From: an uncultured Chloroflexia bacterium
GTDB lineage: Bacteria; Chloroflexota; Dehalococcoidia; Dehalococcoidales; Fen-1064
Direction of reading: 5' to 3'
Assembly: GCA_963754195.1 (NCBI GenBank)
Contig: CAVWFD010000017.1
Coordinates: 18,692-82,691 of the forward strand
DNA length: 64,000 bases
The translations under genes were made by a program, and so were the position numbers. Positions 12,595 to 34,158 of this stretch are shown piece after piece (position 1 is the first letter of the stretch; the number at the start of each line of letters is the position of its first letter). The notes below the pieces were generated by a model. It was not told the origin of the DNA and did no database searches. It saw only the letters and a program-made list of their open reading frames with translations.

Positions 12595-13281
12595 TTAATC
12601 TTTCTTTTCGGACTTTTCAGCTTTGGCTGGAGCTTCTTTCTTCTCGCCTTCAGCAGCTGCACCCTCTTCACCCTCAGCCGCAGCGCCCTCTTCAGCAGCC
12701 TTCGGCTTTTCAACGACCTCGATAACCTCGACGGCGATTCTGGCTACGACGACACCCGGGTCATTGACGATAGTGACATCTTTGATAGGAGGCATGTCTT
12801 TGACGCGGATCAATTGGTCGGCCGTGACCAAGGGAGTGACATCTACTTCGACTTTGCTGGGGATGTTAGTCGGCAAACACTGGACGGTGAGTTCATTCAG
12901 TTCCTGCACCAGCGAATTGCCTTTCATCTTGGCCGCAGCTGATTCACCTATCAATATGATGGGTACATTGACCCGGATAGTCTCCGTTAAATTCACCTGG
13001 TAGAAATCGACGTGAAGCAGACCGCCCTTGAAATTGTCCATTTGGACCTCGCGGATCATGACTACCCTGGGACTGTGCTCATGCCCCAATTTCAGATTAA
13101 CCAGTTGGGTATGCCCTGCGTCTACCAGAATATTTCTCAGATTAGCAGTGTCGCATTGTATCGCTAACGATTCCACACCGGGTCCAAAAAGATGTGCCGG
13201 GGTGACGCCCTCACGGCGCAACTCCTTTACCTTCTTACCCTCGATGTGTCGTTTCGTTGCTTTTAATTCCAATGTAGCCAT
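12595..13281 (-). CDS. rplY: 50S ribosomal protein L25 / general stress protein Ctc, with acidic Ala/Glu/Lys-rich tail
   Basis: MATLELKATKR...GKKVKELRREGVTPAHLFG N-terminus and two-domain Ctc length (228 aa). Confidence 0.9.
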   Translation of the reverse strand: MATLELKATKRHIEGKKVKELRREGVTPAHLFGPGVESLAIQCDTANLRNILVDAGHTQLVNLKLGHEHSPRVVMIREVQMDNFKGGLLHVDFYQVNLTETIRVNVPIILIGESAAAKMKGNSLVQELNELTVQCLPTNIPSKVEVDVTPLVTADQLIRVKDMPPIKDVTIVNDPGVVVARIAVEVIEVVEKPKAAEEGAAAEGEEGAAAEGEKKEAPAKAEKSEKKD

Positions 13282-18672: not shown

Positions 18673-19188
18673 TTATTGTAGATTCTCGTTCTGATACTTC
18701 CCTGCATAGCTTTCCGTCTCTGCCGTCAAAGTCATAAAAACCAATTGCGCCACTCTGGCATCCTTTTGTAAACGGAAACCGCGGGGATTATAGACCAGCA
18801 TCAATGATTGGGAACGCCCGGAATAACCGGCATCCCAGACCGCCGTGCCGATATTAACCCCGCACCGCAGCAGGCTCGACCGCGGTCTCGCCAGCGCCAT
18901 AATGTCGGTGGGGATGTGGACGATCTCGTTGTAAGTGATGATATAGCTGCCCGGCATTAATTCCGTAAAACCATAGGTATCAAAAACCACGGGAGCCAAA
19001 TCAGGCAATTGTCGCTGTCCGTTATCGACGCCGATTTGTCCCATGGTCTGCAGCATGGCAATATCGCGGACGGTAATATCAAAGCCATTCGGCTGGACCT
19101 GTTGTTCCAGATTAATATAGCCTTCAACCAGAGGGGGATTTTGCTGGATCAGACGCTTGATGTCTTTACGTGAAAGAACGCCGTTCAT
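18673..19188 (-). CDS. dcd: dCTP deaminase / dUTPase-superfamily protein
   Basis: MNGVLSRKDIKRLI...NLEQQVQPNGFDITV start and 171-aa length, typical of the Dcd/archaeal-type dUTPase family. Confidence 0.8.
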   Translation of the reverse strand: MNGVLSRKDIKRLIQQNPPLVEGYINLEQQVQPNGFDITVRDIAMLQTMGQIGVDNGQRQLPDLAPVVFDTYGFTELMPGSYIITYNEIVHIPTDIMALARPRSSLLRCGVNIGTAVWDAGYSGRSQSLMLVYNPRGFRLQKDARVAQLVFMTLTAETESYAGKYQNENLQ

Positions 19189-19390
19189 TTCAGCCTCGTT
19201 TAAGTGATTTAAATTGGTGAAGATACGTTATTCATTATAGCGTGAGTAAGGAGATATAACAATCAAAGATTTGTGAAGGCGGGAGTCTCTGGAGATGTTG
19301 CAAAGATATATTAAGAGTATGAACTTCAGGACAGCTTGAAGTTTTGTAAAGCATCCCTGTCATAATTGTAAAAAGTAAGAAATAAGTCTG

Positions 19391-20512
19391 CTAGTGTTCC
19401 GTAATGCTTAAAAATTCGCATAGTTTCTCAAGACCATGTTCGACAGAAGACAAAGTCTTGGAGTAAAGCTGTGCCCACTCTACGGGATATTTGCCAGTAA
19501 CCTTAATAACAACTTCTACAAAAAGAGAGTCGGTAGAATGTATGGGAAACTTCTTGCTTCGCAAAGTCATTACATCTCGGAACGCCTGAATAGTTTCATC
19601 TGGGCATTTACCTAATCGCGATTTCATGAATTCTTCCAAGCAATTGATTGAGCCGTCTTTCTCTGCGGTTAGTTTCATTTCTTTTATATTAATCTGAGTA
19701 ATAAGAAGCGCCAATGCCGATATATTGTTTGTAAATTCCTCCTCGTTTCTACAAGGTTTCATTATTTGGAAAATAGCTTTTTCGTTAGGGTTAAACAACT
19801 TGAATCTAAAACGTGAGTCAAAGAATTCATTGATAGTTTGTCTCACATTAACTAAATGCTCGACTACTCGTATCTGCTCTTCAACTCCCGTCCGGGAAAG
19901 TGGAGCGAGTCGAGCCCTAATATTTTCTATTTCGGTTTGGTTAATAAAGGTACATCCACTTTCTTTCCGACATACAGCAATGTCCATGTCATTTCCAACG
20001 TTAGGGTCAATCTTTGATGTCTCTGATATTGCATATACTGCTAGTTCTTTGGCTTCTTGTTCGCTAAGATCAACTCGGTAAGAGTTGCGTAAGATATACT
20101 CGGCGTAAGGCTTCCCAGTACCATCACAATCGTATACGCTAACTTCTTCTGTGTAACCTCTTCCCATAGTTTTACGTATTCTCTCTAAACCCCCGACTAA
20201 AAAAATTGTCATATCTTCTTCGTCATCTTCCAATTTCTCCTTGTTCTTTTTGTAATAGTCAAGTGTGGTATCGGAAACACACGACGATATACTATCAAAT
20301 GAGGTAGCATTATTTGAACTACAGAACGCCTTAACCGCGCGAAGAATGTCATCGCATGCCCCGGTCAACCCCGCTGTTGCAACGGCGATATCCGACGAGA
20401 GACGTTCAACCTTTGCCTCTCCCTCCCTCATTAAAAGGTCTCCAATCATTGTTCTACGGTCACTGGCAATAAGTGAACCCCCTTTGAACTTAAGTCCTAA
20501 AATTAGAGTCAT
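19391..20512 (-). CDS. Proteasome-beta/HslV-like (T1 Ntn-hydrolase) domain fused to an unassigned ~170-aa helical C-terminal domain
   Basis: MTLILGLKFKGGSLIASDRRTMIGDLLMREGEAKV...ATAG: after Met removal Thr1, Asp17, Lys33 and Gly47 fall at canonical positions. DGTGKPYAEY lies near residue 130. The C-terminal half is not recognised. Confidence 0.7.
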   Translation of the reverse strand: MTLILGLKFKGGSLIASDRRTMIGDLLMREGEAKVERLSSDIAVATAGLTGACDDILRAVKAFCSSNNATSFDSISSCVSDTTLDYYKKNKEKLEDDEEDMTIFLVGGLERIRKTMGRGYTEEVSVYDCDGTGKPYAEYILRNSYRVDLSEQEAKELAVYAISETSKIDPNVGNDMDIAVCRKESGCTFINQTEIENIRARLAPLSRTGVEEQIRVVEHLVNVRQTINEFFDSRFRFKLFNPNEKAIFQIMKPCRNEEEFTNNISALALLITQINIKEMKLTAEKDGSINCLEEFMKSRLGKCPDETIQAFRDVMTLRSKKFPIHSTDSLFVEVVIKVTGKYPVEWAQLYSKTLSSVEHGLEKLCEFLSITEH

Positions 20513-20555
20513 CTATCTTCCTCCATTTATCCCAAACAATAATCTTAGATGTTAC

Positions 20556-20987
20556 TTACCACCAAGAATCATCGACTTTTTTCGCCTTCTTTCTCTTAGT
20601 GGGCTTTCTGGCAGTCGCCTTCTTATACCCAACTTTTAGTTTGATTGTTCTATGCCCAACTACGTTACCCCAATAATCTTTTTCTTTTATTACCTTCAGT
20701 TTGGTATGTTTACCATGACACACTTTACAGACCAAATAGCAGTTACTCTGTGTATTATTTGCTGAATTGTTGTCCTTGTGGTCAAAATCATAGCTTCTAT
20801 CACCCCAAGTTAAGAGTCTCTTACATTTTCGGCATTTAGATTTGGGTATATTTTTCGGTACCTTGCTATCCGCTAGGTATTTAAGAAGTGGTTTATTGCC
20901 GCTTTCACCTGCTGCCTTGAGCCACTCAACCCTTTTTGTTTTTAAGCCGAAAGCCTTCCTTTTGTTTTCAGTCCCCCATAGATACAT
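20556..20987 (-). CDS. HNH endonuclease (zinc-finger type) with Lys-rich C-terminal tail
   Basis: CRKCKRLL...DFDHKDNNSANNTQSNCYLVCKVCHGKH: CxxC...DH...N...CxxCH pattern. Confidence 0.75.
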   Translation of the reverse strand: MYLWGTENKRKAFGLKTKRVEWLKAAGESGNKPLLKYLADSKVPKNIPKSKCRKCKRLLTWGDRSYDFDHKDNNSANNTQSNCYLVCKVCHGKHTKLKVIKEKDYWGNVVGHRTIKLKVGYKKATARKPTKRKKAKKVDDSWW

Positions 20988-21132
20988 TTCTCACCTCTAA
21001 ATTATCAGGCTAATAGCTTTGCTCGTTATGTTATACCTAGGTATGCTAGTTGTCAACTGATGCGAGAAAGATGTGCTAGAATAGTTTTACTCTTTTTGAA
21101 ACAGGAAATAAAAACCGCCATTGAGGTGTAAA

Positions 21133-22053
21133 ATGACTAACGGGAAGGACATTGTTAAACTTTTTCATGAATTAGATATGATGCCAGAAAAACAGCTAGA
21201 GGTAAAAATACGAGCTTTGGATAGGTCCCGTTACGTTTTTAATCAGAATTATTCACAATTAAGGAATTTATTACTTGTGGAAAAAGATACGGAACAAGCA
21301 TTAAAACTATGGGATGGTAAAAATCAAGATGCCCATGATGCTTATCGTCTTGAAGCGACTAGATTGTTTCATAATTTTGTTGTGTCAGTGAAATCATTGA
21401 TAGATCATAGCAGAATTCTATACAACGATCTTTATAAAGAAAACAATAAATTTCCTGATTATCAAAAGGAAATAACGACACGGTTTATAGAGAATCCTTT
21501 TGCTCAATTCGTAGAAGATTTACGAGATTATTCCTTACATTTCAAACTTCCTCCAATATTTTCAGAAATAACTTACAAATCAGACCCCCCTCGGATGGAA
21601 TGTGGGACTAGACTCGATATTAGGGCACTAGAAAACGGGTTTAATTGGTCTTCACCTGCAAAAAAATATCTAGAGGAGCAGAAAATTAAGATTAAATCAT
21701 CCTCGCAAATCGGTGACAATATGAGCCTAAACCTTCTTGTTCTAATTGAAGAATATTACTCTATCGTAGTAGATTTCCATAAATGGTTATTAACACGACA
21801 AAACGAAATACATTCAGAAGAGTTTGGAAGACTAGGTGCCAAAACGCAAACACTTAGGGAACTTATAATTCCTGAAGAGATTGCCACAGCCTTAACCGAT
21901 ATGAAAATGAGTAAAAATCCTGATGAAGCTTTTTACCGACTATTAAACCATGAGCAACGAATTCAACCTAATCAAATTCCGATTAAATCCATTAGTCACG
22001 TTGAGAAACTACTTGAATTTATTAAACAACAAGCTTTTTTAGCCAAGAGTTAG
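21133..22053 (+). CDS. Hypothetical protein (island orphan)
   Basis: 306-aa ORF from ATG 21133 (the track TTG at 21121 is less likely); AT-rich; no family recognised. Confidence 0.5.
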   Translation: MTNGKDIVKLFHELDMMPEKQLEVKIRALDRSRYVFNQNYSQLRNLLLVEKDTEQALKLWDGKNQDAHDAYRLEATRLFHNFVVSVKSLIDHSRILYNDLYKENNKFPDYQKEITTRFIENPFAQFVEDLRDYSLHFKLPPIFSEITYKSDPPRMECGTRLDIRALENGFNWSSPAKKYLEEQKIKIKSSSQIGDNMSLNLLVLIEEYYSIVVDFHKWLLTRQNEIHSEEFGRLGAKTQTLRELIIPEEIATALTDMKMSKNPDEAFYRLLNHEQRIQPNQIPIKSISHVEKLLEFIKQQAFLAKS

Positions 22054-22202: not shown

Positions 22203-22259
22203 TGGTGGTAGCGGGTGGAATCAAACCGCCGACCAAAGGCTTATGAGTCCTAACCACCA
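22203..22259 (-). other. 3' portion of a tRNA-Met(CAU)-like gene (anticodon arm to encoded CCA); putative att relic, not a functional tRNA
   Basis: The minus strand reads ...TAGGACTCATAAGCCTT-TGGTC-GGCGGTTTGATTCCACC-CGCTACC-A-CCA. The T-arm, 7-nt acceptor strand, discriminator and CCA are correctly juxtaposed. There is no D-arm or 5' acceptor strand upstream, and the stems contain mismatches. Confidence 0.4.
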
Positions 22260-23199
22260 TCTCAAATTGCTTAACAAATTTAGTGTATCAGAGCTCGCAG
22301 AGTTAAGCAAATTAAGCAAAGCCTACATCTCTCAGGTCAAACATGGTAAACGTCCGCCGTCTGTAAAATTACTTGAATGTCTAAGCCAAATTCAATGCGG
22401 TCAAAACAAACTTGAAATAGATTATTTACCCATATTTATTCAGTCCAGACGAGCTATTGAAGTATCACCAACAACTATTAAATACTACAATTCTAAACTT
22501 GGAAAATTTATCGCTTCGGTCAATCCTGATAAGGCTAGCCAACAACAAATAGAACGCTTCCTTCTCCAATTCAGTAACACGGGCAATCGCCATATATATT
22601 ATCGTGTTTTAAAAACCTTTTATTGCTGGAGAGAGCAAACCTTCAATTTACCGAACCCCATGAAATTATTGAAAGCACCACGATTAGGAAAATTAATAAT
22701 GCCCAGTTTAAACAGAGAGGATGTTATGGTTCTACTTGAAAGGGCAAATTGTGACAGAGACAAAGCTATCATTGCCCTATTTACTGAGAGCGGTCTTAGG
22801 CTAGCTGAATTAACGCATATAAAGCCTGTAGACATCGACTGGCTAGCAGGGACTATAAGAGTATTAGGTAAGGGTAGGAAAGAGGCACTAGCGCCATTTG
22901 GTGACCTTTCAAGGCAGTACCTTATACAGTGGCTAGCGGAATATCAGCCTAAAGAAAACATCTGGGGATTGAATGAATGGGGTATAGTTTCAATGCTTAG
23001 AAGATTAGAGAAAGTTACAGGGATAACTTGTAATCCTCATACATTCAGACGGACATTTGCTTGCTTACTTCGTAAAGCTGGGGTAGATACTATGACCATT
23101 AAAGACTTGGGTAGATGGGAAAGTCTAGAGATGGTACAAAGATATACTAGGAGTGTCAATTTTCAGGATAGTTTGAAGTTTTATAAAACACCATTGTGA
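22243..23199 (+). CDS. Tyrosine recombinase/integrase with N-terminal HTH
   Basis: FSVSELAELSKLSKAYISQVKHG HTH; catalytic signature SGLRLAEL ... HTFRRTFA ... LEMVQRYT. The stop codon is supplied by the IS3 terminus. Confidence 0.85.
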   Translation: MSPNHHLKLLNKFSVSELAELSKLSKAYISQVKHGKRPPSVKLLECLSQIQCGQNKLEIDYLPIFIQSRRAIEVSPTTIKYYNSKLGKFIASVNPDKASQQQIERFLLQFSNTGNRHIYYRVLKTFYCWREQTFNLPNPMKLLKAPRLGKLIMPSLNREDVMVLLERANCDRDKAIIALFTESGLRLAELTHIKPVDIDWLAGTIRVLGKGRKEALAPFGDLSRQYLIQWLAEYQPKENIWGLNEWGIVSMLRRLEKVTGITCNPHTFRRTFACLLRKAGVDTMTIKDLGRWESLEMVQRYTRSVNFQDSLKFYKTPL

Positions 23200-23213: not shown

Positions 23214-24140
23214 TTAGGACAGCAATGGGGCTAAATTAAGATAGTGTCCTGCTGTATCAATGGTACCTTGTGTTAACGATTCTATCACACCTTTCTCAGG
23301 CTCTTCAAAGGGGGTGGGGGCAAATAACTCGCCCGGTGTCCGATACCAGAGTGCCTGGTGGGGACGTGCATTGTTGTAGAAACGGAAATAGTCCCCAATC
23401 CCGATTCGGGCATCTTTCCCATTCTGATATGCTTTTAAGTACACCTCCTCATATTTCACTGTTCTCCATAACCTCTCGATAAACAGGTTGTCTCTGTAAC
23501 TTCCTTTCCCATCCATGCTAATCTTGATTCCATGTTGCTCTAAAAGCCCGGTGAAAGCCTTGCCTGTGAATTGTGATCCCTGGTCAGTATTAAAAACATC
23601 CGGGGTGCCTTTCTTGAGCGCCTCTTCGAGTGCCCACACACAGAAGTCAGCGTCCAAGGTGTTTGATAACCTCCACGCCAATACATACCGGCTGTACCAG
23701 TCCATGATGACTACCAGATACATGAAACCGTGTGCCATAGGTATGTAAGTGATGTCAGCACACCACACTTGATTTGGCCGTGTTATTTCCATACCAGTTA
23801 AAAGATACGGGTAGATTTTATTACCCGGTCCCGGCGGGCTAGTCCGAGGACGGCGGTAGATGGCCTTCAAACCCATTAATTGCATCAGCCGCCGTACGTG
23901 TTTCCGGTTAACATTGTGGTGTTTACTCTTTAGCCAAGCTGCCATCTTGCGGGTTCCATAGAACGGTGTGACCATGTATTGGCAGTCAATCAGCTTCATT
24001 AGATTAAGGTCATTGTCAGAGACTCCTATCGGCTGATAATACAACCCAGAGCGACTGATATCCAACAATTTACACTGACTGGTCACGGAGAGTGATGGAC
24101 GGCGGCGATCAACAGCAGCACGCCTTTGGCTTACTTCCAC
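23214..24140 (-). CDS. IS3-family transposase OrfB (DDE integrase core), normally expressed as an OrfAB fusion
   Basis: WCADITYI (D), NTDQGSQFT (D) and ERLWRTVKYEE (E) DDE triad. Confidence 0.9.
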   Translation of the reverse strand: MEVSQRRAAVDRRRPSLSVTSQCKLLDISRSGLYYQPIGVSDNDLNLMKLIDCQYMVTPFYGTRKMAAWLKSKHHNVNRKHVRRLMQLMGLKAIYRRPRTSPPGPGNKIYPYLLTGMEITRPNQVWCADITYIPMAHGFMYLVVIMDWYSRYVLAWRLSNTLDADFCVWALEEALKKGTPDVFNTDQGSQFTGKAFTGLLEQHGIKISMDGKGSYRDNLFIERLWRTVKYEEVYLKAYQNGKDARIGIGDYFRFYNNARPHQALWYRTPGELFAPTPFEEPEKGVIESLTQGTIDTAGHYLNLAPLLS

Positions 24141-24421
24141 CGCTCCAACCCTTTCTCTAAAAAATCCTTCTCTACTTTCAGCTGTCCAATCTGCTGGTAA
24201 AGCTGATTTATCAGTCCTTTCTCATCCTTGATCTTCTTGTTGGGATCAGCGCCAAAGATATTGGCAGCTCCTGCTACCAGTTCTCTCTTCCATTTATTGA
24301 TTTGGGTCGGGTGGACCTCAAAACGGATGGCTAATTCCGCGATGGTCTCTTCGCCCTTTAGTGCTTCCATGGCAACCCGGGCTTTAAAGTCCGGATTATA
24401 CTGTTTGCGGCTCTTTTTCAA
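24131..24421 (-). CDS. IS3-family transposase OrfA (HTH)
   Basis: MKKSRKQYNPDFKARVAMEALKGEETIAELA...HPTQINKWK, typical IS3/IS911 OrfA. Confidence 0.85.
   Translation of the reverse strand: MKKSRKQYNPDFKARVAMEALKGEETIAELAIRFEVHPTQINKWKRELVAGAANIFGADPNKKIKDEKGLINQLYQQIGQLKVEKDFLEKGLERWK
24158..24164 (-). promoter_or_regulatory. Programmed -1 ribosomal frameshift heptamer T_TTT_TTA of the IS3 transposase
   Basis: In the orfA frame gaT TTT TTA gag. A -1 slip continues into ...RERVGAVEVSQRRAAVD, the orfB frame. Confidence 0.5.
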
Positions 24422-24667
24422 TTTCCTGCTCCTTCGTATTCTCTTATTTTAGGAGCAGAACTCTATCTTAACAACCTGTCCAGTTTTTGGGGACCACCTC
24501 ATTGAGCTGAGTCGAATTAAGCTCGAATTGCTTCTGTTTGGGGTTTTGTGATTGACTTGGCAAGTTTATTATCTCGTTTTCAATTCTAGCGGTAAAATTC
24601 GAAATCCATTTATAATCATAATTGGTCTTAGAAATGGTATAATACCTGAATCAAAAAACTTAACCAG

Positions 24668-25222
24668 ATGAAATATAAAAATGTACAAACCAGTAGAGAG
24701 AGAGAAGCTCAAAAACTTCGCCGTTACGATGAGAATCAACTATTAGAAATGATTTCGGCTTTCAGTTTGATGAGGCGAGATAAATCTAGCTTTGAATCCT
24801 TACTGAGAAAATATGGGGCTAGCCCACAAGCAAAATTGAGAGATTGCCAATTGGCTTTTGTGACGAAATTAGTTCTTCATTTTTGGGGGAAACCAAGACT
24901 TTCTCAACGTAATCTAAAAACCGAAGATTTAATTGACGCCTCAGATAGCCTAATTAGAAACCAAGGAACTTCCTCATACCCTTTAACAACCATAGAAGAT
25001 ATTGATAAAAATTTCTTGCGAATGGCATATCAACAATTCCCCGATTTTTATGGTGACAGGGAAACGTTTGCGAGGACACAATTGCTCTTCCGAACTTGCA
25101 CAAAAGAAGTCGAAAATGAGATGGGATTTAATGTTGATGATGCATTTCAGGAAGCTACTGGCTTAACGCTTGACAAATGCTGGGATATAACTCTTGCGAT
25201 ATGCGGATTATTATTGATGTAG
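24668..25222 (+). pseudogene. Hypothetical gene truncated at its 3' end by the IS21-family element
   Basis: 184-aa ORF whose last codons and TAG stop (25220-25222) lie inside the IS21 left terminus; extended -10 TGGTATAAT at about 24635. No family recognised. Confidence 0.4.
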
Positions 25223-25388
25223 TTTCTCAAGTGAATTGACCGCTTTCCGGAGAAAATTCTCAAGCTAATTTACCAGGTAAATTCTCAAGGTAATTGACCA
25301 CCCTCTGGTGCACCAAGACCATAGATATTGCATCATTGGCTCAGCTAGTTATAAGGAGGTTGAGCCATTGGCAAGAAGGAGGTTTCTG

Positions 25389-26918
25389 GTGCGAGATATC
25401 GCAGAAATTCTGGAGCACTGGCAAGTGGGAAGGAGCATTGGTGCCATTTCCCGCAGTCTTGATGTCTCTCGGGCTACTATTCGTAAATATGTTTATGCCG
25501 CCGAAGCCAGGGGGTACCGGCAGGGTGATCCAACGCCACCGCAGGGCTGGAATGCTTTTATCGCTGATGTTATTCCACGGCCGCCAGACGCGGCTACCCG
25601 GTCACCGGTATTTGCCGCGCTGCTTCCCTACCAGGATGAAATCATATCTGCTTTGGTCACCACAAAAGCCTCGACGATCTGGCAGAGGCTGCGGGACGAA
25701 AAGAAAGTAAACGTCTCTCAGCCCAGTTTCTACCGGTACCTGAGCTGTTTTCTTGGGGATGCCTGGAAAAAGCCGCTGATTACGGTTAGACGCGATGACC
25801 CGCCTCCTGGCGAGGAAGCCCAGGTAGATTTTGGTTACCTCGGCACATGGCAAGACCCAAAGACGGGTAAAAAGTGCCGATTGTGGGCCTTCGCCCTGAT
25901 ACTGTCTTATAGCCGGCACATGTTTGTCTGCGTGGTTACCCGGATGGGCCAACGGGAGTGGTTAAACTGTCATATTTCCGCCTTCCAGTTTTTCGGTGGA
26001 ACTCCGCTCCGAATTATCCCGGATAATTTAAAGACCGGGGTAATCAAGCCCGATCTCTATGACCCGAAGTTTAACCTTGGTTACGATGAGCTGGCACACC
26101 ACTACGGGATTATCATCGACCCCGCCAGAAGCGGAAAACCGAAAGATAAGGCCAGGGTAGAGCGGGTGGTCCCTTATATCCGGGACAGCTTCTGGTCGGG
26201 CAGAAACTTCACCAGCCTGGATGAAATCAACCGGCAAGCCAGGGAGTGGTGCCTTCGAGTCGCCGGAATGCATGAGCATGGCACCACGCATCAGCCGCCG
26301 TTAAATCTCTTTCGCTTAGCCGAAGAAAAAACACTCCGGCCACTGCCGGGGGCGCCGTTTGAAATTGTTACCTGGCATCAGTCTAAAGTGGCTCTCGATT
26401 GCCATATCCAGGTGAGCACTACTCTCTATTCAGTACCTTACCAGTATGTGGGGAAAAGGGTGGACGTTAAACTGGGCGGTAGAACGGTAGAGATATACCT
26501 CGATTCCAATCTGATTAAGACCCACCCCAGAGGTGATAAAGGGCGGAGGGTGACCGACTGGAATGACTATCCTCCGGAGAAGGCGGCCTTTTTCCAGCGT
26601 ACTCCGGAGTGGTACCGGCAGAAAGCCAGCGCGATAGGTCTCGCCACCAGGGAGACCATTGATAGCTTGCTGAAACTGCATGCTTTCCATTACCTGCGCC
26701 AGTGCCAGGGTATTTTAAGGCTGGAAGAAAAGTATGGGCAGGTGAGACTGGAACAAGCCTGCTCCCGGGCCAATGCCTTTGGCGACCCCTGCTACCGGAC
26801 GGTGAAGACCATCCTGGAAAGGGAACTGGACAAACAAACGCTTCTCTTCGAGCCGGTCAGGGAAGCCGGGGCTTTCTTACGCGGAGCCGAGGAATTATGC
26901 GGCTCAATTAAAAATTAA
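25389..26918 (+). CDS. istA: IS21-family transposase IstA
   Basis: HTH (VSRATIRKYV) and DDE core (QVDFGYLG, IIPDNLKTGV, KDKARVERVV). The GTG at 25389 follows AAGGAGG; the track start at 25308 is an alternative. Confidence 0.9.
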   Translation: MRDIAEILEHWQVGRSIGAISRSLDVSRATIRKYVYAAEARGYRQGDPTPPQGWNAFIADVIPRPPDAATRSPVFAALLPYQDEIISALVTTKASTIWQRLRDEKKVNVSQPSFYRYLSCFLGDAWKKPLITVRRDDPPPGEEAQVDFGYLGTWQDPKTGKKCRLWAFALILSYSRHMFVCVVTRMGQREWLNCHISAFQFFGGTPLRIIPDNLKTGVIKPDLYDPKFNLGYDELAHHYGIIIDPARSGKPKDKARVERVVPYIRDSFWSGRNFTSLDEINRQAREWCLRVAGMHEHGTTHQPPLNLFRLAEEKTLRPLPGAPFEIVTWHQSKVALDCHIQVSTTLYSVPYQYVGKRVDVKLGGRTVEIYLDSNLIKTHPRGDKGRRVTDWNDYPPEKAAFFQRTPEWYRQKASAIGLATRETIDSLLKLHAFHYLRQCQGILRLEEKYGQVRLEQACSRANAFGDPCYRTVKTILERELDKQTLLFEPVREAGAFLRGAEELCGSIKN

Positions 26919-26930
26919 AGGAGAGATTAT

Positions 26931-27698
26931 ATGACTGATAAGCACCAGATAGAAAACAAAATGAGGGCACTCAAGCTCAGTGGGATGATGGAAACCCTGG
27001 ATATGAGATTAGACCAGGCACAAAAAGACGGGGTAAATTTTACCCAGTTCCTTGAAGTACTACTGGAAGATGAGGTACAGCACCGGACAAACAAGAGACT
27101 CTCTACCCGGATTATCCGGGCTCACTTCGAGGAAGAGAAGAGTCTGGAAGGCTTTGATTTTAACTTCAATCCTAAACTACCTGCCCAGTATATCCGTGAG
27201 TTGGCCACCTGCCAGTTTATGGAACGTAAAGAATCAGTGATCCTCTGTGGTCCGGTGGGAGTGGGTAAGACACATCTTGCTCAGGCGCTGGGACACCAGG
27301 CTTGCCGCTCTGGATACAATGTCCTCTTTATGAAGACCAGCCGTCTCCTTGCCGACCTGGGCGGCGGTCGTGCTGATGAAACCTGGGAGAAGAGGATACA
27401 ACACTACCTGAAACCCAACTTACTGATAGTGGATGACTTCGCAATGAGGGAGTTTACCAAGACTCAGGCCGAGGACCTCTATGAGCTTATCGACCGGCGC
27501 CATCACACCGGCTCCCTGATAGTCACCGCCAACCGGGCACCCAAAGACTGGTACCCCCTCTTCCCCAACCCCGTCATCGCTGAAAGTGCACTCGACCGTC
27601 TCATCAGCGGCGCTCACATGATTACTCTTACCGGTAAAAGCTACCGGTCAATGCTTCGTCCTAATAAAGACCTTGATAAGGAGGAGGTAACTATGTAA
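26931..27698 (+). CDS. istB: IS21-family helper ATPase IstB
   Basis: Walker A GPVGVGKTHLA; Walker B LLIVDDF; 255 aa. Confidence 0.92.
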   Translation: MTDKHQIENKMRALKLSGMMETLDMRLDQAQKDGVNFTQFLEVLLEDEVQHRTNKRLSTRIIRAHFEEEKSLEGFDFNFNPKLPAQYIRELATCQFMERKESVILCGPVGVGKTHLAQALGHQACRSGYNVLFMKTSRLLADLGGGRADETWEKRIQHYLKPNLLIVDDFAMREFTKTQAEDLYELIDRRHHTGSLIVTANRAPKDWYPLFPNPVIAESALDRLISGAHMITLTGKSYRSMLRPNKDLDKEEVTM

Positions 27699-30668: not shown

Positions 30669-30830
30669 CTATTTTGCATAGGAATAAGCTTATGATGAAA
30701 AAGGACAAAATGATCTAAAGCGATTTGGTGAAAAAGACCAGCCAGGCGGCTTGGTGCAAATCACCAAGCCGCCTTAAATTTGTCCGGCACATTAAAAATA
30801 AAATAGCGAGTTAGTATCAAGTCTGAAACA

Positions 30831-33797
<2,967 letters not shown>

Positions 33798-34035
33798 TGT
33801 TTCAGACTTGATATTAGCTTTTTATAACAGACTGACGCTGTATTGCTCAGTCTGTGTCATGACATGACCCGATTTTAGACTCTTTTTCTTTGATTTAAGA
33901 TTGAATTCATGCTACAATAATCATATAGAAATCCGGTGAGAAACCGGATTCCAAGAGACAGCCGGATAAGTATCTTGCAACAAAACGTAACCTGCTCTAT
34001 GATAGAGATGAGGCTGTCAGTAACAAGTGAATAGG

Positions 34036-34158
34036 CTTCCTGGTGGTTTGGGCGAAGTGGTACCACCCGTTCCCATCCCGAACACGGTAGTGAAACGCTT
34101 CAGCGCAGACGATACTGAGAGGACAACCTTTTGTGGAAAATATGCCATCGCCAGGAAG
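34036..34158 (+). rRNA. rrf: 5S ribosomal RNA
   Basis: CTTCCTGGTGG...CCCGTTCCCATCCCGAACACGG...GCCAGGAAG with complementary ends. Confidence 0.9.

Follow-up and report, generated by a model that had tools for sequence, protein, structure and literature searches.

A proteasome-type peptidase fused to a candidate HEPN-like domain on an integrative mini-island of a Dehalococcoidales bacterium

Proteasome homologues and HEPN ribonucleases (RNases) are the described systems closest to the subject of this work, a 373-aa two-domain protein encoded in a 64,000-nt stretch of DNA from an uncultured Dehalococcoidales bacterium (GenBank assembly GCA_963754195.1, contig CAVWFD010000017.1, positions 18,692–82,691; the whole stretch is called the window). 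Among proteasome homologues, the archaeal 20S beta subunits (PF00227, MEROPS T1) are the closest family by sequence. The orphan proteasome homologues (HslV, BPH, Anbu, connectase and the 22 families catalogued by Fuchs, Alva and Lupas) are, like our protein, stand-alone T1 proteins without an alpha subunit (PMC8665760). Several of them are propeptide-less, and the C-termini of proteasome homologues point away from the ring; connectase, DAH, FC4, RPC as well as DGH carry C-terminal domains of unassigned function, predicted to point away from any ring (PMC8665760). On the RNase side, HEPN enzymes are defined by an Rx4-6H motif that includes a polar residue after the Arg, and AbiJ-type proteins exchange HEPN and TIR domains behind a shared N-terminal module (PMC3710099). 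The same survey does not mention a T1 peptidase or proteasome-like N-terminal module, and the literature searched contained nothing relevant that links a proteasome homologue or PF00227 to HEPN domains, phages or defence.

We propose, with a probability of roughly 45%, that the 373-aa protein, labelled PBH like its family, is a single-gene, horizontally transferred accessory/conflict or abortive-infection-type protein equipped with a HEPN-like RNase effector. We infer both the HEPN membership of its C-terminal domain (C-domain) and its conflict or defence role, of which the latter is plausible but only moderately supported. The novelty would lie in an AbiJ-like layout with a protease of the proteasome type, and in a domain superfamily that had no annotation before. 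PBH is a stand-alone family with members of about 370–380 aa; the positions of the gene, its domains and its neighbours are collected in Table 1.

The N-terminal domain is a proteasome-beta-type T1/N-terminal nucleophile (Ntn) peptidase that, judged by alignment and structure prediction, retains the full catalytic set. The Pfam Proteasome model PF00227 matches residues 4–180 with E=1.2e-17 and 64.6 bits, where the cutoff is 22.4. The AlphaFold model of full-length PBH, which has a predicted local distance difference test (pLDDT) score of 86.6 and a flexible linker at residues 204–206, is matched by Foldseek to the beta chains of 1pma, 1j2q and 8f66, T. acidophilum and A. fulgidus chains included, with TM-scores of 0.86–0.87 normalised to the target, root-mean-square deviations of 1.9–2.3 Å and E~2e-12. 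The protein begins with MTLILGLKFKGGSLIASDRRTMIGDLLMREGEAKVE, and its catalytic residues are T2, D18, K34, G48, T132 (the Ser129 position) and D169 (the Asp166 position) in precursor numbering, while the Ser169 position of the T1 register is occupied by Val. Among 71 full-length relatives, Asp17 and Gly47 are retained in every one, Thr1 in 70, Lys33 in 69 and Asp166 in 67, and the Ser129 position is Ser or Thr in 65. This conservation of the aligned register is far beyond chance; as the catalytic set is near-invariant, the register appears to be under selection, and the peptidase is apparently active. No propeptide is present, and an exact Met-Thr start is found in 65/71 of the relatives. Since PBH begins with Met-Thr, Thr1 would become N-terminal once the initiator Met is removed, with no need for autoprocessing. 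Methionine aminopeptidase specificity predicts that Met excision leaves a free Thr1.

PBH differs from the archaeal 20S beta subunits in several respects, although it shares their fold and the Thr1/Asp17/Lys33/Gly47/Ser129/Asp166 set. Among NCBIfam models the archaeal beta subunit (TIGR03634) scores best, but its 61.8 bits lie far below the equivalog cutoff of 224. TIGR03690 gives 33.6 bits (cutoff 191.9) and the HslV models give 14.4 bits (cutoff 137) and 12.1 bits (cutoff 157.75), which places PBH outside both the canonical 20S beta subunits and HslV. Unlike the archaeal subunits, PBH lacks a propeptide, an alpha partner and a nearby unfoldase gene, has an extra C-domain of 170 aa, and sits in a bacterium on a mobile island; no gene for an alpha subunit, a second beta subunit or an AAA+ protein was found within about 8 kb. 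An earlier note on this DNA, made by reading the sequence without database searches, had already recognised the T1/Ntn fold, the Thr1/Asp17/Lys33/Gly47 register and the absence of these three partners nearby, and the searches bear it out on each count. An acidic loop after helix H2 (LEDDEEDM, residues 94–101) recalls BPH. In the text of the orphan survey (PMC8665760), no family is described as having the helical Rx4-6H domain of PBH.

The C-domain is an autonomous module: sequence searches find it in hundreds of protein clusters, where the N-terminal regions in front of it are many and unrelated. The earlier note had described residues 200–372 as helix-rich and unassignable; they do remain unassigned in every library searched, but they form a discrete and widespread domain and not merely a helix-rich tail. 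An AlphaFold2 model of residues 195–373 alone, built from an 80-sequence alignment, is all-helical with a pLDDT of 90.3. The domain was previously unannotated, as no library searched holds a model for it: 24 close and 92 diverse members gave no match to Pfam HEPN or any other consistent Pfam match, only scattered single-member matches; nothing credible was returned from NCBIfam, from PADLOC or by the profile hidden Markov model run against PDB sequences; and a fold search of BFVD yielded noise only. When 1.84 billion cluster representatives were searched with a profile, 661 proteins were recovered at E<=1e-3, 359 of them at E<=1e-10; the superfamily comprises at least 661 clusters at 50% identity. 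In the best 150 of these 661 matches the domain is almost always C-terminal and follows at least 30 mutually unrelated classes of N-terminal region. Most of these regions carry no enzymatic signature, and a proteasome-like N-domain precedes the C-domain in 18 of the 99 proteins whose N-terminal region was long enough to classify.

The few polar residues conserved throughout the C-domain superfamily include an Arg–His pair. Across 113 diverse copies, His325 is invariant (113/113), Arg318 is present in 105 and Pro323 in 108; the remaining conserved positions are Asn228 (106/113) and Arg224 (78/113) in helix 1, Ser/Thr288 (108/113), Arg/Lys312 (101/113) and Pro343. The spacing between Arg and His varies through alignment gaps at positions 319 and 320, giving RNALIH (Rx4H), RKKYPIH (Rx5H), RSKKFPIH (Rx6H) and forms up to Rx7H, and the Arg is followed by Ser or Asn. 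The PBH C-domain and its superfamily thus carry the motif by which HEPN RNases are defined, polar residue included. When the predicted structure was compared with the PDB by Foldseek, 11 of the top 20 matches (ranks 1, 2, 3, 4, 6, 7, 9, 13, 14, 19 and 20) were HEPN-superfamily entries, the best with a non-significant E of 0.59. They include AF0298 (2hsb), HepT (7bxo, 5yep, 6m6w, 7ae6 and 7ae9) and MtlR/YggD (3c8g), three families of the HEPN superfamily (PMC3710099). On the strength of the motif, the fold class, the enrichment among the matches and the domain architecture, we lean towards regarding the C-domain as a new family of HEPN-like effectors, a reading drawn from alignments and predicted structures.

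Several observations weigh against this assignment. None of the Foldseek matches, by which the four-helix up-down core of HEPN domains would be recognised, is significant (best E=0.59, probability 0.35, TM-scores 0.28–0.40), no Pfam HEPN model matches any member, and the profile searches against the PDB were empty. A helix ends at the Arg, and the loop that comes next, which contains Pro, holds the His. The Ex3[KR] element of HEPN domains is not evident in the C-domain; Glu244 is kept in 73/113 copies, not as Ex3[KR].

A sister family adds to the modular picture. In it, an uncharacterised N-terminal domain of ~200 aa (ND) is joined to the C-domain, and in P0166, P0176 and P0184 the same ND precedes a TIR domain instead of the C-domain. 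The ND proteins form a modular family and are likely conflict proteins. Their ND motif reads GSNKYPDWTMPPEI (members P0079–P0094, P0166, P0176 and P0184); besides the ND + C-domain and ND + TIR forms, some have extra N-terminal modules, a Ras-like GTPase among them, and one ND protein comes from Candidatus Syntrophoarchaeum. Within the whole C-domain superfamily, PADLOC models match only the TIR regions, and apparent PDC-S66 matches were rejected as TIR-only matches.

By analogy, the AbiJ-like single-protein HEPN effectors (PMC3710099) appear to be the closest functional counterpart of PBH. Both have an all-helical C-domain in which Rx4-6H occurs and the Arg is followed by a polar residue, both place this domain behind many unrelated N-modules, one such module (ND in the sister family) being alternatively fused to TIR, and both are encoded by stand-alone genes in variable, partly defence-rich neighbourhoods. 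The PBH C-domain is larger, with ~170 aa and eight helices, its motif runs from the end of a helix into a loop with Pro, it has no Pfam HEPN match, and its structural similarity to HEPN domains is sub-threshold. The minimal HEPN toxins of the HepT/MntA and AF0298 types (7bxo, 5yep and 2hsb) are the top Foldseek matches of the C-domain, at E=0.6–1.6 and TM-scores of 0.28–0.40, yet PBH lacks an adjacent MNT antitoxin or any other conserved partner.

The PBH family is rare and patchy. We collected 89 homologues, about 70 of them full-length, and about 60 PBH-encoding loci. A pattern-limited scan of 185,579 representative genomes gave six loci, in ANME-1, Bathyarchaeia and Thermoplasmata metagenome-assembled genomes (MAGs), and a further 47 loci were found in metagenomes. 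A bacterial branch includes the window, from Dehalococcoidales, and its 69%-identical relative; elsewhere PBH occurs mostly in archaeal MAGs. In one archaeal genome (GCA_054773095.1, L010) the fusion gene lies 7.7 kb from an ordinary 207-aa beta subunit (18826–19449), so that genome keeps its canonical subunit alongside the fusion. PBH and three other C-domain architectures have no relatives in GenBank phages or PLSDB plasmids, and PBH has none in IMG/VR either. PBH is therefore not a phage morphogenesis gene. The earlier note could name no described defence system built on a T1 peptidase, and the searches agree: the 373-aa protein has no match in PADLOC-DB v2, and neither the NCBIfam antiphage models nor the literature searched hold a T1-based system.

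The neighbourhoods of PBH are suggestive of defence islands. An uncontrolled Pfam count over 113 de-duplicated neighbours within 5 kb returned Phage_integrase most often (4), followed by Eco57I, ResIII, N6_N4_Mtase and N6_Mtase (3 each) and by SWI2_SNF2, GmrSD, HSDR_N, SIR2_2 and MmeI_Mtase (2 each). PADLOC matches among the neighbours comprise restriction-modification types I, II and IIG, PglX, PbeA/C and mad2. Individual contexts of mobile or defence-like character are the mini-island of the window, a locus with a pP_pnuc_1 nuclease and a patatin nearby, a locus with a DDE transposase, and an integrated primase/D5/integrase element followed by SIR2. The defence or addiction role suggested in the earlier note is moderately backed by frequent restriction-modification, GmrSD, SIR2, Pbe and integrase neighbours; against it, the eight contexts annotated with Pfam include four of a housekeeping or metabolic kind. 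These four are bL25 with an amidohydrolase and LigT, a metallophosphoesterase with CPSase, NUDIX with RadA, and a benzoyl-CoA-type/anaerobic aromatic metabolism locus. A bL25 gene lies near PBH in four related loci; among bacterial relatives it is beside PBH or within ~6 kb of it, as in L061 (8001–10598), the window (12595–13281), L009 and L012. In L061 a gene for a LigT-type 2',3'-cyclic phosphodiesterase/RNA ligase follows PBH by ~0.9 kb, after an amidohydrolase gene. The bL25/LigT proximity may mean that the site is an insertion hot spot, or that there is a functional connection with RNA ends bearing a 2',3'-cyclic phosphate.

How PBH might act can be outlined as follows. The C-domain would be a divergent, metal-independent RNase of the HEPN superfamily and the toxic effector. 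The T1 domain would oligomerise, as proteasome homologues usually do, with the C-termini facing outward. HEPN active sites normally form between two domains, at dimer interfaces. Given outward-facing C-termini and active sites of this kind, assembly could bring the HEPN-like domains together and gate their RNase activity. The Thr1 protease would sense or cleave a protein of the invader or the host, or serve as a second effector. Most likely PBH acts alone; the HNH protein encoded next to it and a 310-aa protein would be independent cargo of the same 3.8-kb integrative mini-island, and the integrase would be its machinery. A more far-reaching form of the proposal, that a T1 protease was recruited to prokaryotic immunity within a single-polypeptide effector, that its ring or oligomer assembly, or its proteolytic sensing of an invader protein, gates a new family of HEPN-like RNases, and that this RNase domain marks out a large, hitherto unannotated and mainly archaeal set of defence proteins, is doubtful in our estimate.

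The accessory/conflict reading of PBH has its own difficulties. There is no conserved immunity or antitoxin partner, which leaves the restraint of a toxic RNase unexplained. The absence of relatives among GenBank phages, PLSDB plasmids and IMG/VR, the lack of a PADLOC match and the four ordinary contexts also count against it. With 35–70% identity between members from different domains of life, the family is fairly conserved, and many defence genes evolve quickly by comparison. Our confidence in this reading is below one half, mainly because no antitoxin is conserved, the structural match is sub-threshold and some contexts are housekeeping ones.

Three other explanations were weighed. The roles of the two domains could be reversed, so that the protease is the effector and the C-domain a sensor or regulator that binds nucleic acid, a nucleotide or a protein through a non-catalytic Arg/His pocket. 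Ligand-gated defence proteases do exist, such as SAVED-Lon, where the protease is the output. The T1 catalytic set of PBH is as strictly conserved as the C-domain motif, the HEPN homology is not statistically established, and a constant C-domain behind variable N-domains would also fit a sensor that stays the same while the effectors vary; non-catalytic HEPN domains are, moreover, known as binding domains (PMC3710099). On the other hand, the C-domain shares its slot in the sister family with TIR, a recognised effector, most of its partner regions show no sign of an enzyme, and the combination of a fully invariant His and a nearly invariant Arg corresponds to the catalytic pattern of HEPN RNases. 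We consider the reversed arrangement unlikely. In another explanation, PBH is a niche housekeeping or stress enzyme of certain anaerobic archaea and Chloroflexota, where it links the turnover of protein to that of RNA, for example in quality control; it is occasionally mobilised but is no immune or addiction factor. The four ordinary contexts, the bL25 gene of the four related loci, the absence of an antitoxin and the relatively high sequence conservation are all compatible with such a role, which is nevertheless hard to square with six matches in the pattern-limited scan of 185,579 genomes, a patchy spread across domains of life and coexistence with a canonical beta subunit. Here PBH is cargo of a low-GC integrative mini-island beside insertion sequence (IS) elements, other copies lie beside a transposase, in a primase/integrase element with SIR2 or by pP_pnuc_1 and patatin, and restriction-modification and defence families are the commonest neighbours. 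A housekeeping function therefore strikes us as decidedly unlikely, and the accessory/conflict reading is retained.

The last explanation, put forward in the earlier note, takes the HNH nuclease and the T1 peptidase as a dedicated two-gene defence or addiction cassette. The two co-directional minus-strand open reading frames (ORFs) are indeed where that note placed them, separated by a gap of 43 nt and each preceded by a Shine-Dalgarno-like sequence, and its description of the partner as a zinc-finger HNH protein with a Lys-rich tail holds as far as the motif is concerned (CxxC...DFDHKDNNSANN...CxxCH), the model matches being weak (Pfam HNH E=0.13; HNH region of PADLOC ZorE E=2e-5). In the present genome HNH and PBH are probably co-transcribed, as judged from the sequence, because HNH has one promoter-like site upstream and the two genes have no terminator-like site between them. 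The consensus scan found neither a promoter-like nor a terminator-like site in this gap; promoter-like sites are rarer in the region than in its shuffles, which makes the upstream match weak evidence for an HNH promoter. Against a dedicated cassette, a tblastn search of 74 loci found HNH only in L007 and L008, copies of the locus in the window, and in none of the ~60 other PBH-encoding loci; conversely, PBH is missing from all seven HNH-homologue loci examined (L068–L074). In these loci the two genes never co-occur beyond copies of one locus, an outcome that the earlier note had itself named as refuting its proposal, and the cassette was rejected; we now regard it as highly improbable. HNH is a local passenger and not a conserved partner of PBH. 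It belongs to a family with at least 150 close homologues or clusters (47–76% identity) that has a partner of its own: in two independent contexts a conserved 62-aa ORF (MLGRMKKGEYVVGLRAIGVGEW...), 92% identical between these unrelated settings and missing from the window, follows immediately downstream, and the two may form a two-gene module. No other gene takes the place of HNH beside PBH. All-against-all clustering of 520 ORFs from 58 loci revealed no recurrent neighbour, and tblastx comparison of the 800-bp flanks detected no conserved sequence outside duplicate, near-identical or bL25-syntenic loci, except three short matches of 17–30 aa. A third partner or antitoxin was accordingly rejected, as the ORF clustering and the flank comparison returned duplicates only.

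If the accessory/conflict reading is right, PBH would connect the proteasome (T1) fold with a conflict or immune effector for the first time, as far as PADLOC, the NCBIfam antiphage models and the literature searched extend. The C-domain superfamily, with its 661 clusters, Arg/His signature, modularity and TIR swap, would then offer a source of candidate defence genes in archaea and bacteria, and PBH, a beta-type subunit that has neither propeptide nor partner but bears an added catalytic domain, would lend itself to studying how proteasome-like assembly is repurposed. Should the reading be wrong, the pairing with HNH would still be incidental and PBH would still be an orphan proteasome homologue with a novel C-domain.

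Table 1. Positions of PBH, its domains and the surrounding features, counted from the first nucleotide of the window.
Feature	Position	Strand	Description
Integrase 3'-end remnant	19255..19360	+	Degenerate, contains stop codons; left edge of the mini-island
PBH gene	19391..20512	-	373-aa two-domain protein: proteasome-beta-like Thr peptidase and HEPN-like C-domain
C-terminal all-helical domain	19394..19894	-	PBH residues 207-373, ~170 aa, 8 helices
RSKKFPIH motif	19538..19561	-	R318-x6-H325, Rx4-6H signature
T1 (proteasome beta-type) domain	19904..20512	-	PBH residues 1-203
Thr1 codon	20507-20509	-	
HNH gene	20556..20987	-	143 aa, small zinc-finger HNH protein, Lys-rich tail
Sigma-70-like promoter match	21028..21056	-	TTGACA-17-TAACAT, upstream of HNH; consensus scan
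310-aa gene	21121..22053	+	Divergent, no known family; R135-[D/N]-x3-H140, canonical HEPN-type Rx4H motif
Integrase	22243..23199	+	XerA/XerC-like tyrosine recombinase, N-terminal helix-turn-helix (HTH)
IS3-family element	23214-24471		orfA and orfB; 18-nt inverted repeats at 23236-23253 and 24454-24471; directly adjoins the island
184-aa ORF	24668-25222		Between the IS3 and IS21 elements
IS21-family element	25308-27698		istA and istB; downstream of IS3

PBH, HNH, the 310-aa gene and the integrase gene lie on a mini-island of ~3.8 kb that is bracketed by an att-like direct repeat. The earlier note had placed the gene pair in an AT-rich mobile island, and this is confirmed by the composition, the integrase and the repeat boundary: the G+C content is 0.36–0.40 at 19–23 kb against 0.45–0.50 in both flanks. 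A repeat search found the two copies at 19255–19360 and 23091–23197, 3836 bp apart and 74–81% identical. The right copy is the 3' end of the integrase gene (22243–23199), and the left copy is 59% identical to integrase residues 284–317 by tblastn. The integrase matches PF00589 (E=5e-21) and HTH_3, and NF040815 XerA with E=6e-38, below the cutoff; this XerA/XerC-like recombinase is presumably the integrase of the mini-element. The degenerate copy of the integrase 3' end at the far edge of the island suggests that the integrase-bearing element was inserted beside an older related element or replaced it. No tRNA gene was found in the window, and tRNA-linked integration was rejected.

The 310-aa gene looks like a separate conflict-type cargo gene, and, to judge by its motif, the island may carry in it a second HEPN-like conflict gene that is unrelated to the first. 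Its family has 13 homologues with invariant R135, H140, R81, H84, N85 and H96; they adjoin a PemK/RHH toxin-antitoxin pair or lie near CD-NTase and Cap15 genes, and in the loci examined they are never beside PBH or HNH. Profile-profile comparison showed no relation between the PBH C-domain and this Rx4H-bearing family. A relationship between the 310-aa protein and the pP_pnuc_1 protein beside the closest PBH homologue was considered and rejected, as the two are unrelated.

Further along the window, bacterial 23S and 5S rRNA genes occupy 30830–34156. The rRNA operon is unlinked, since no 16S gene lies upstream of the 23S gene and protein ORFs fill 27.8–30.2 kb there instead. Several best matches of window genes are archaeal in flavour, and the XerA-like and archaeal-beta matches had pointed to an archaeal host; this was rejected on the bacterial 23S rRNA and on RadA, and the host is a Chloroflexota bacterium. 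The RadA protein of the window shares its 90%-identity cluster with one from a Dehalococcoidales bacterium.

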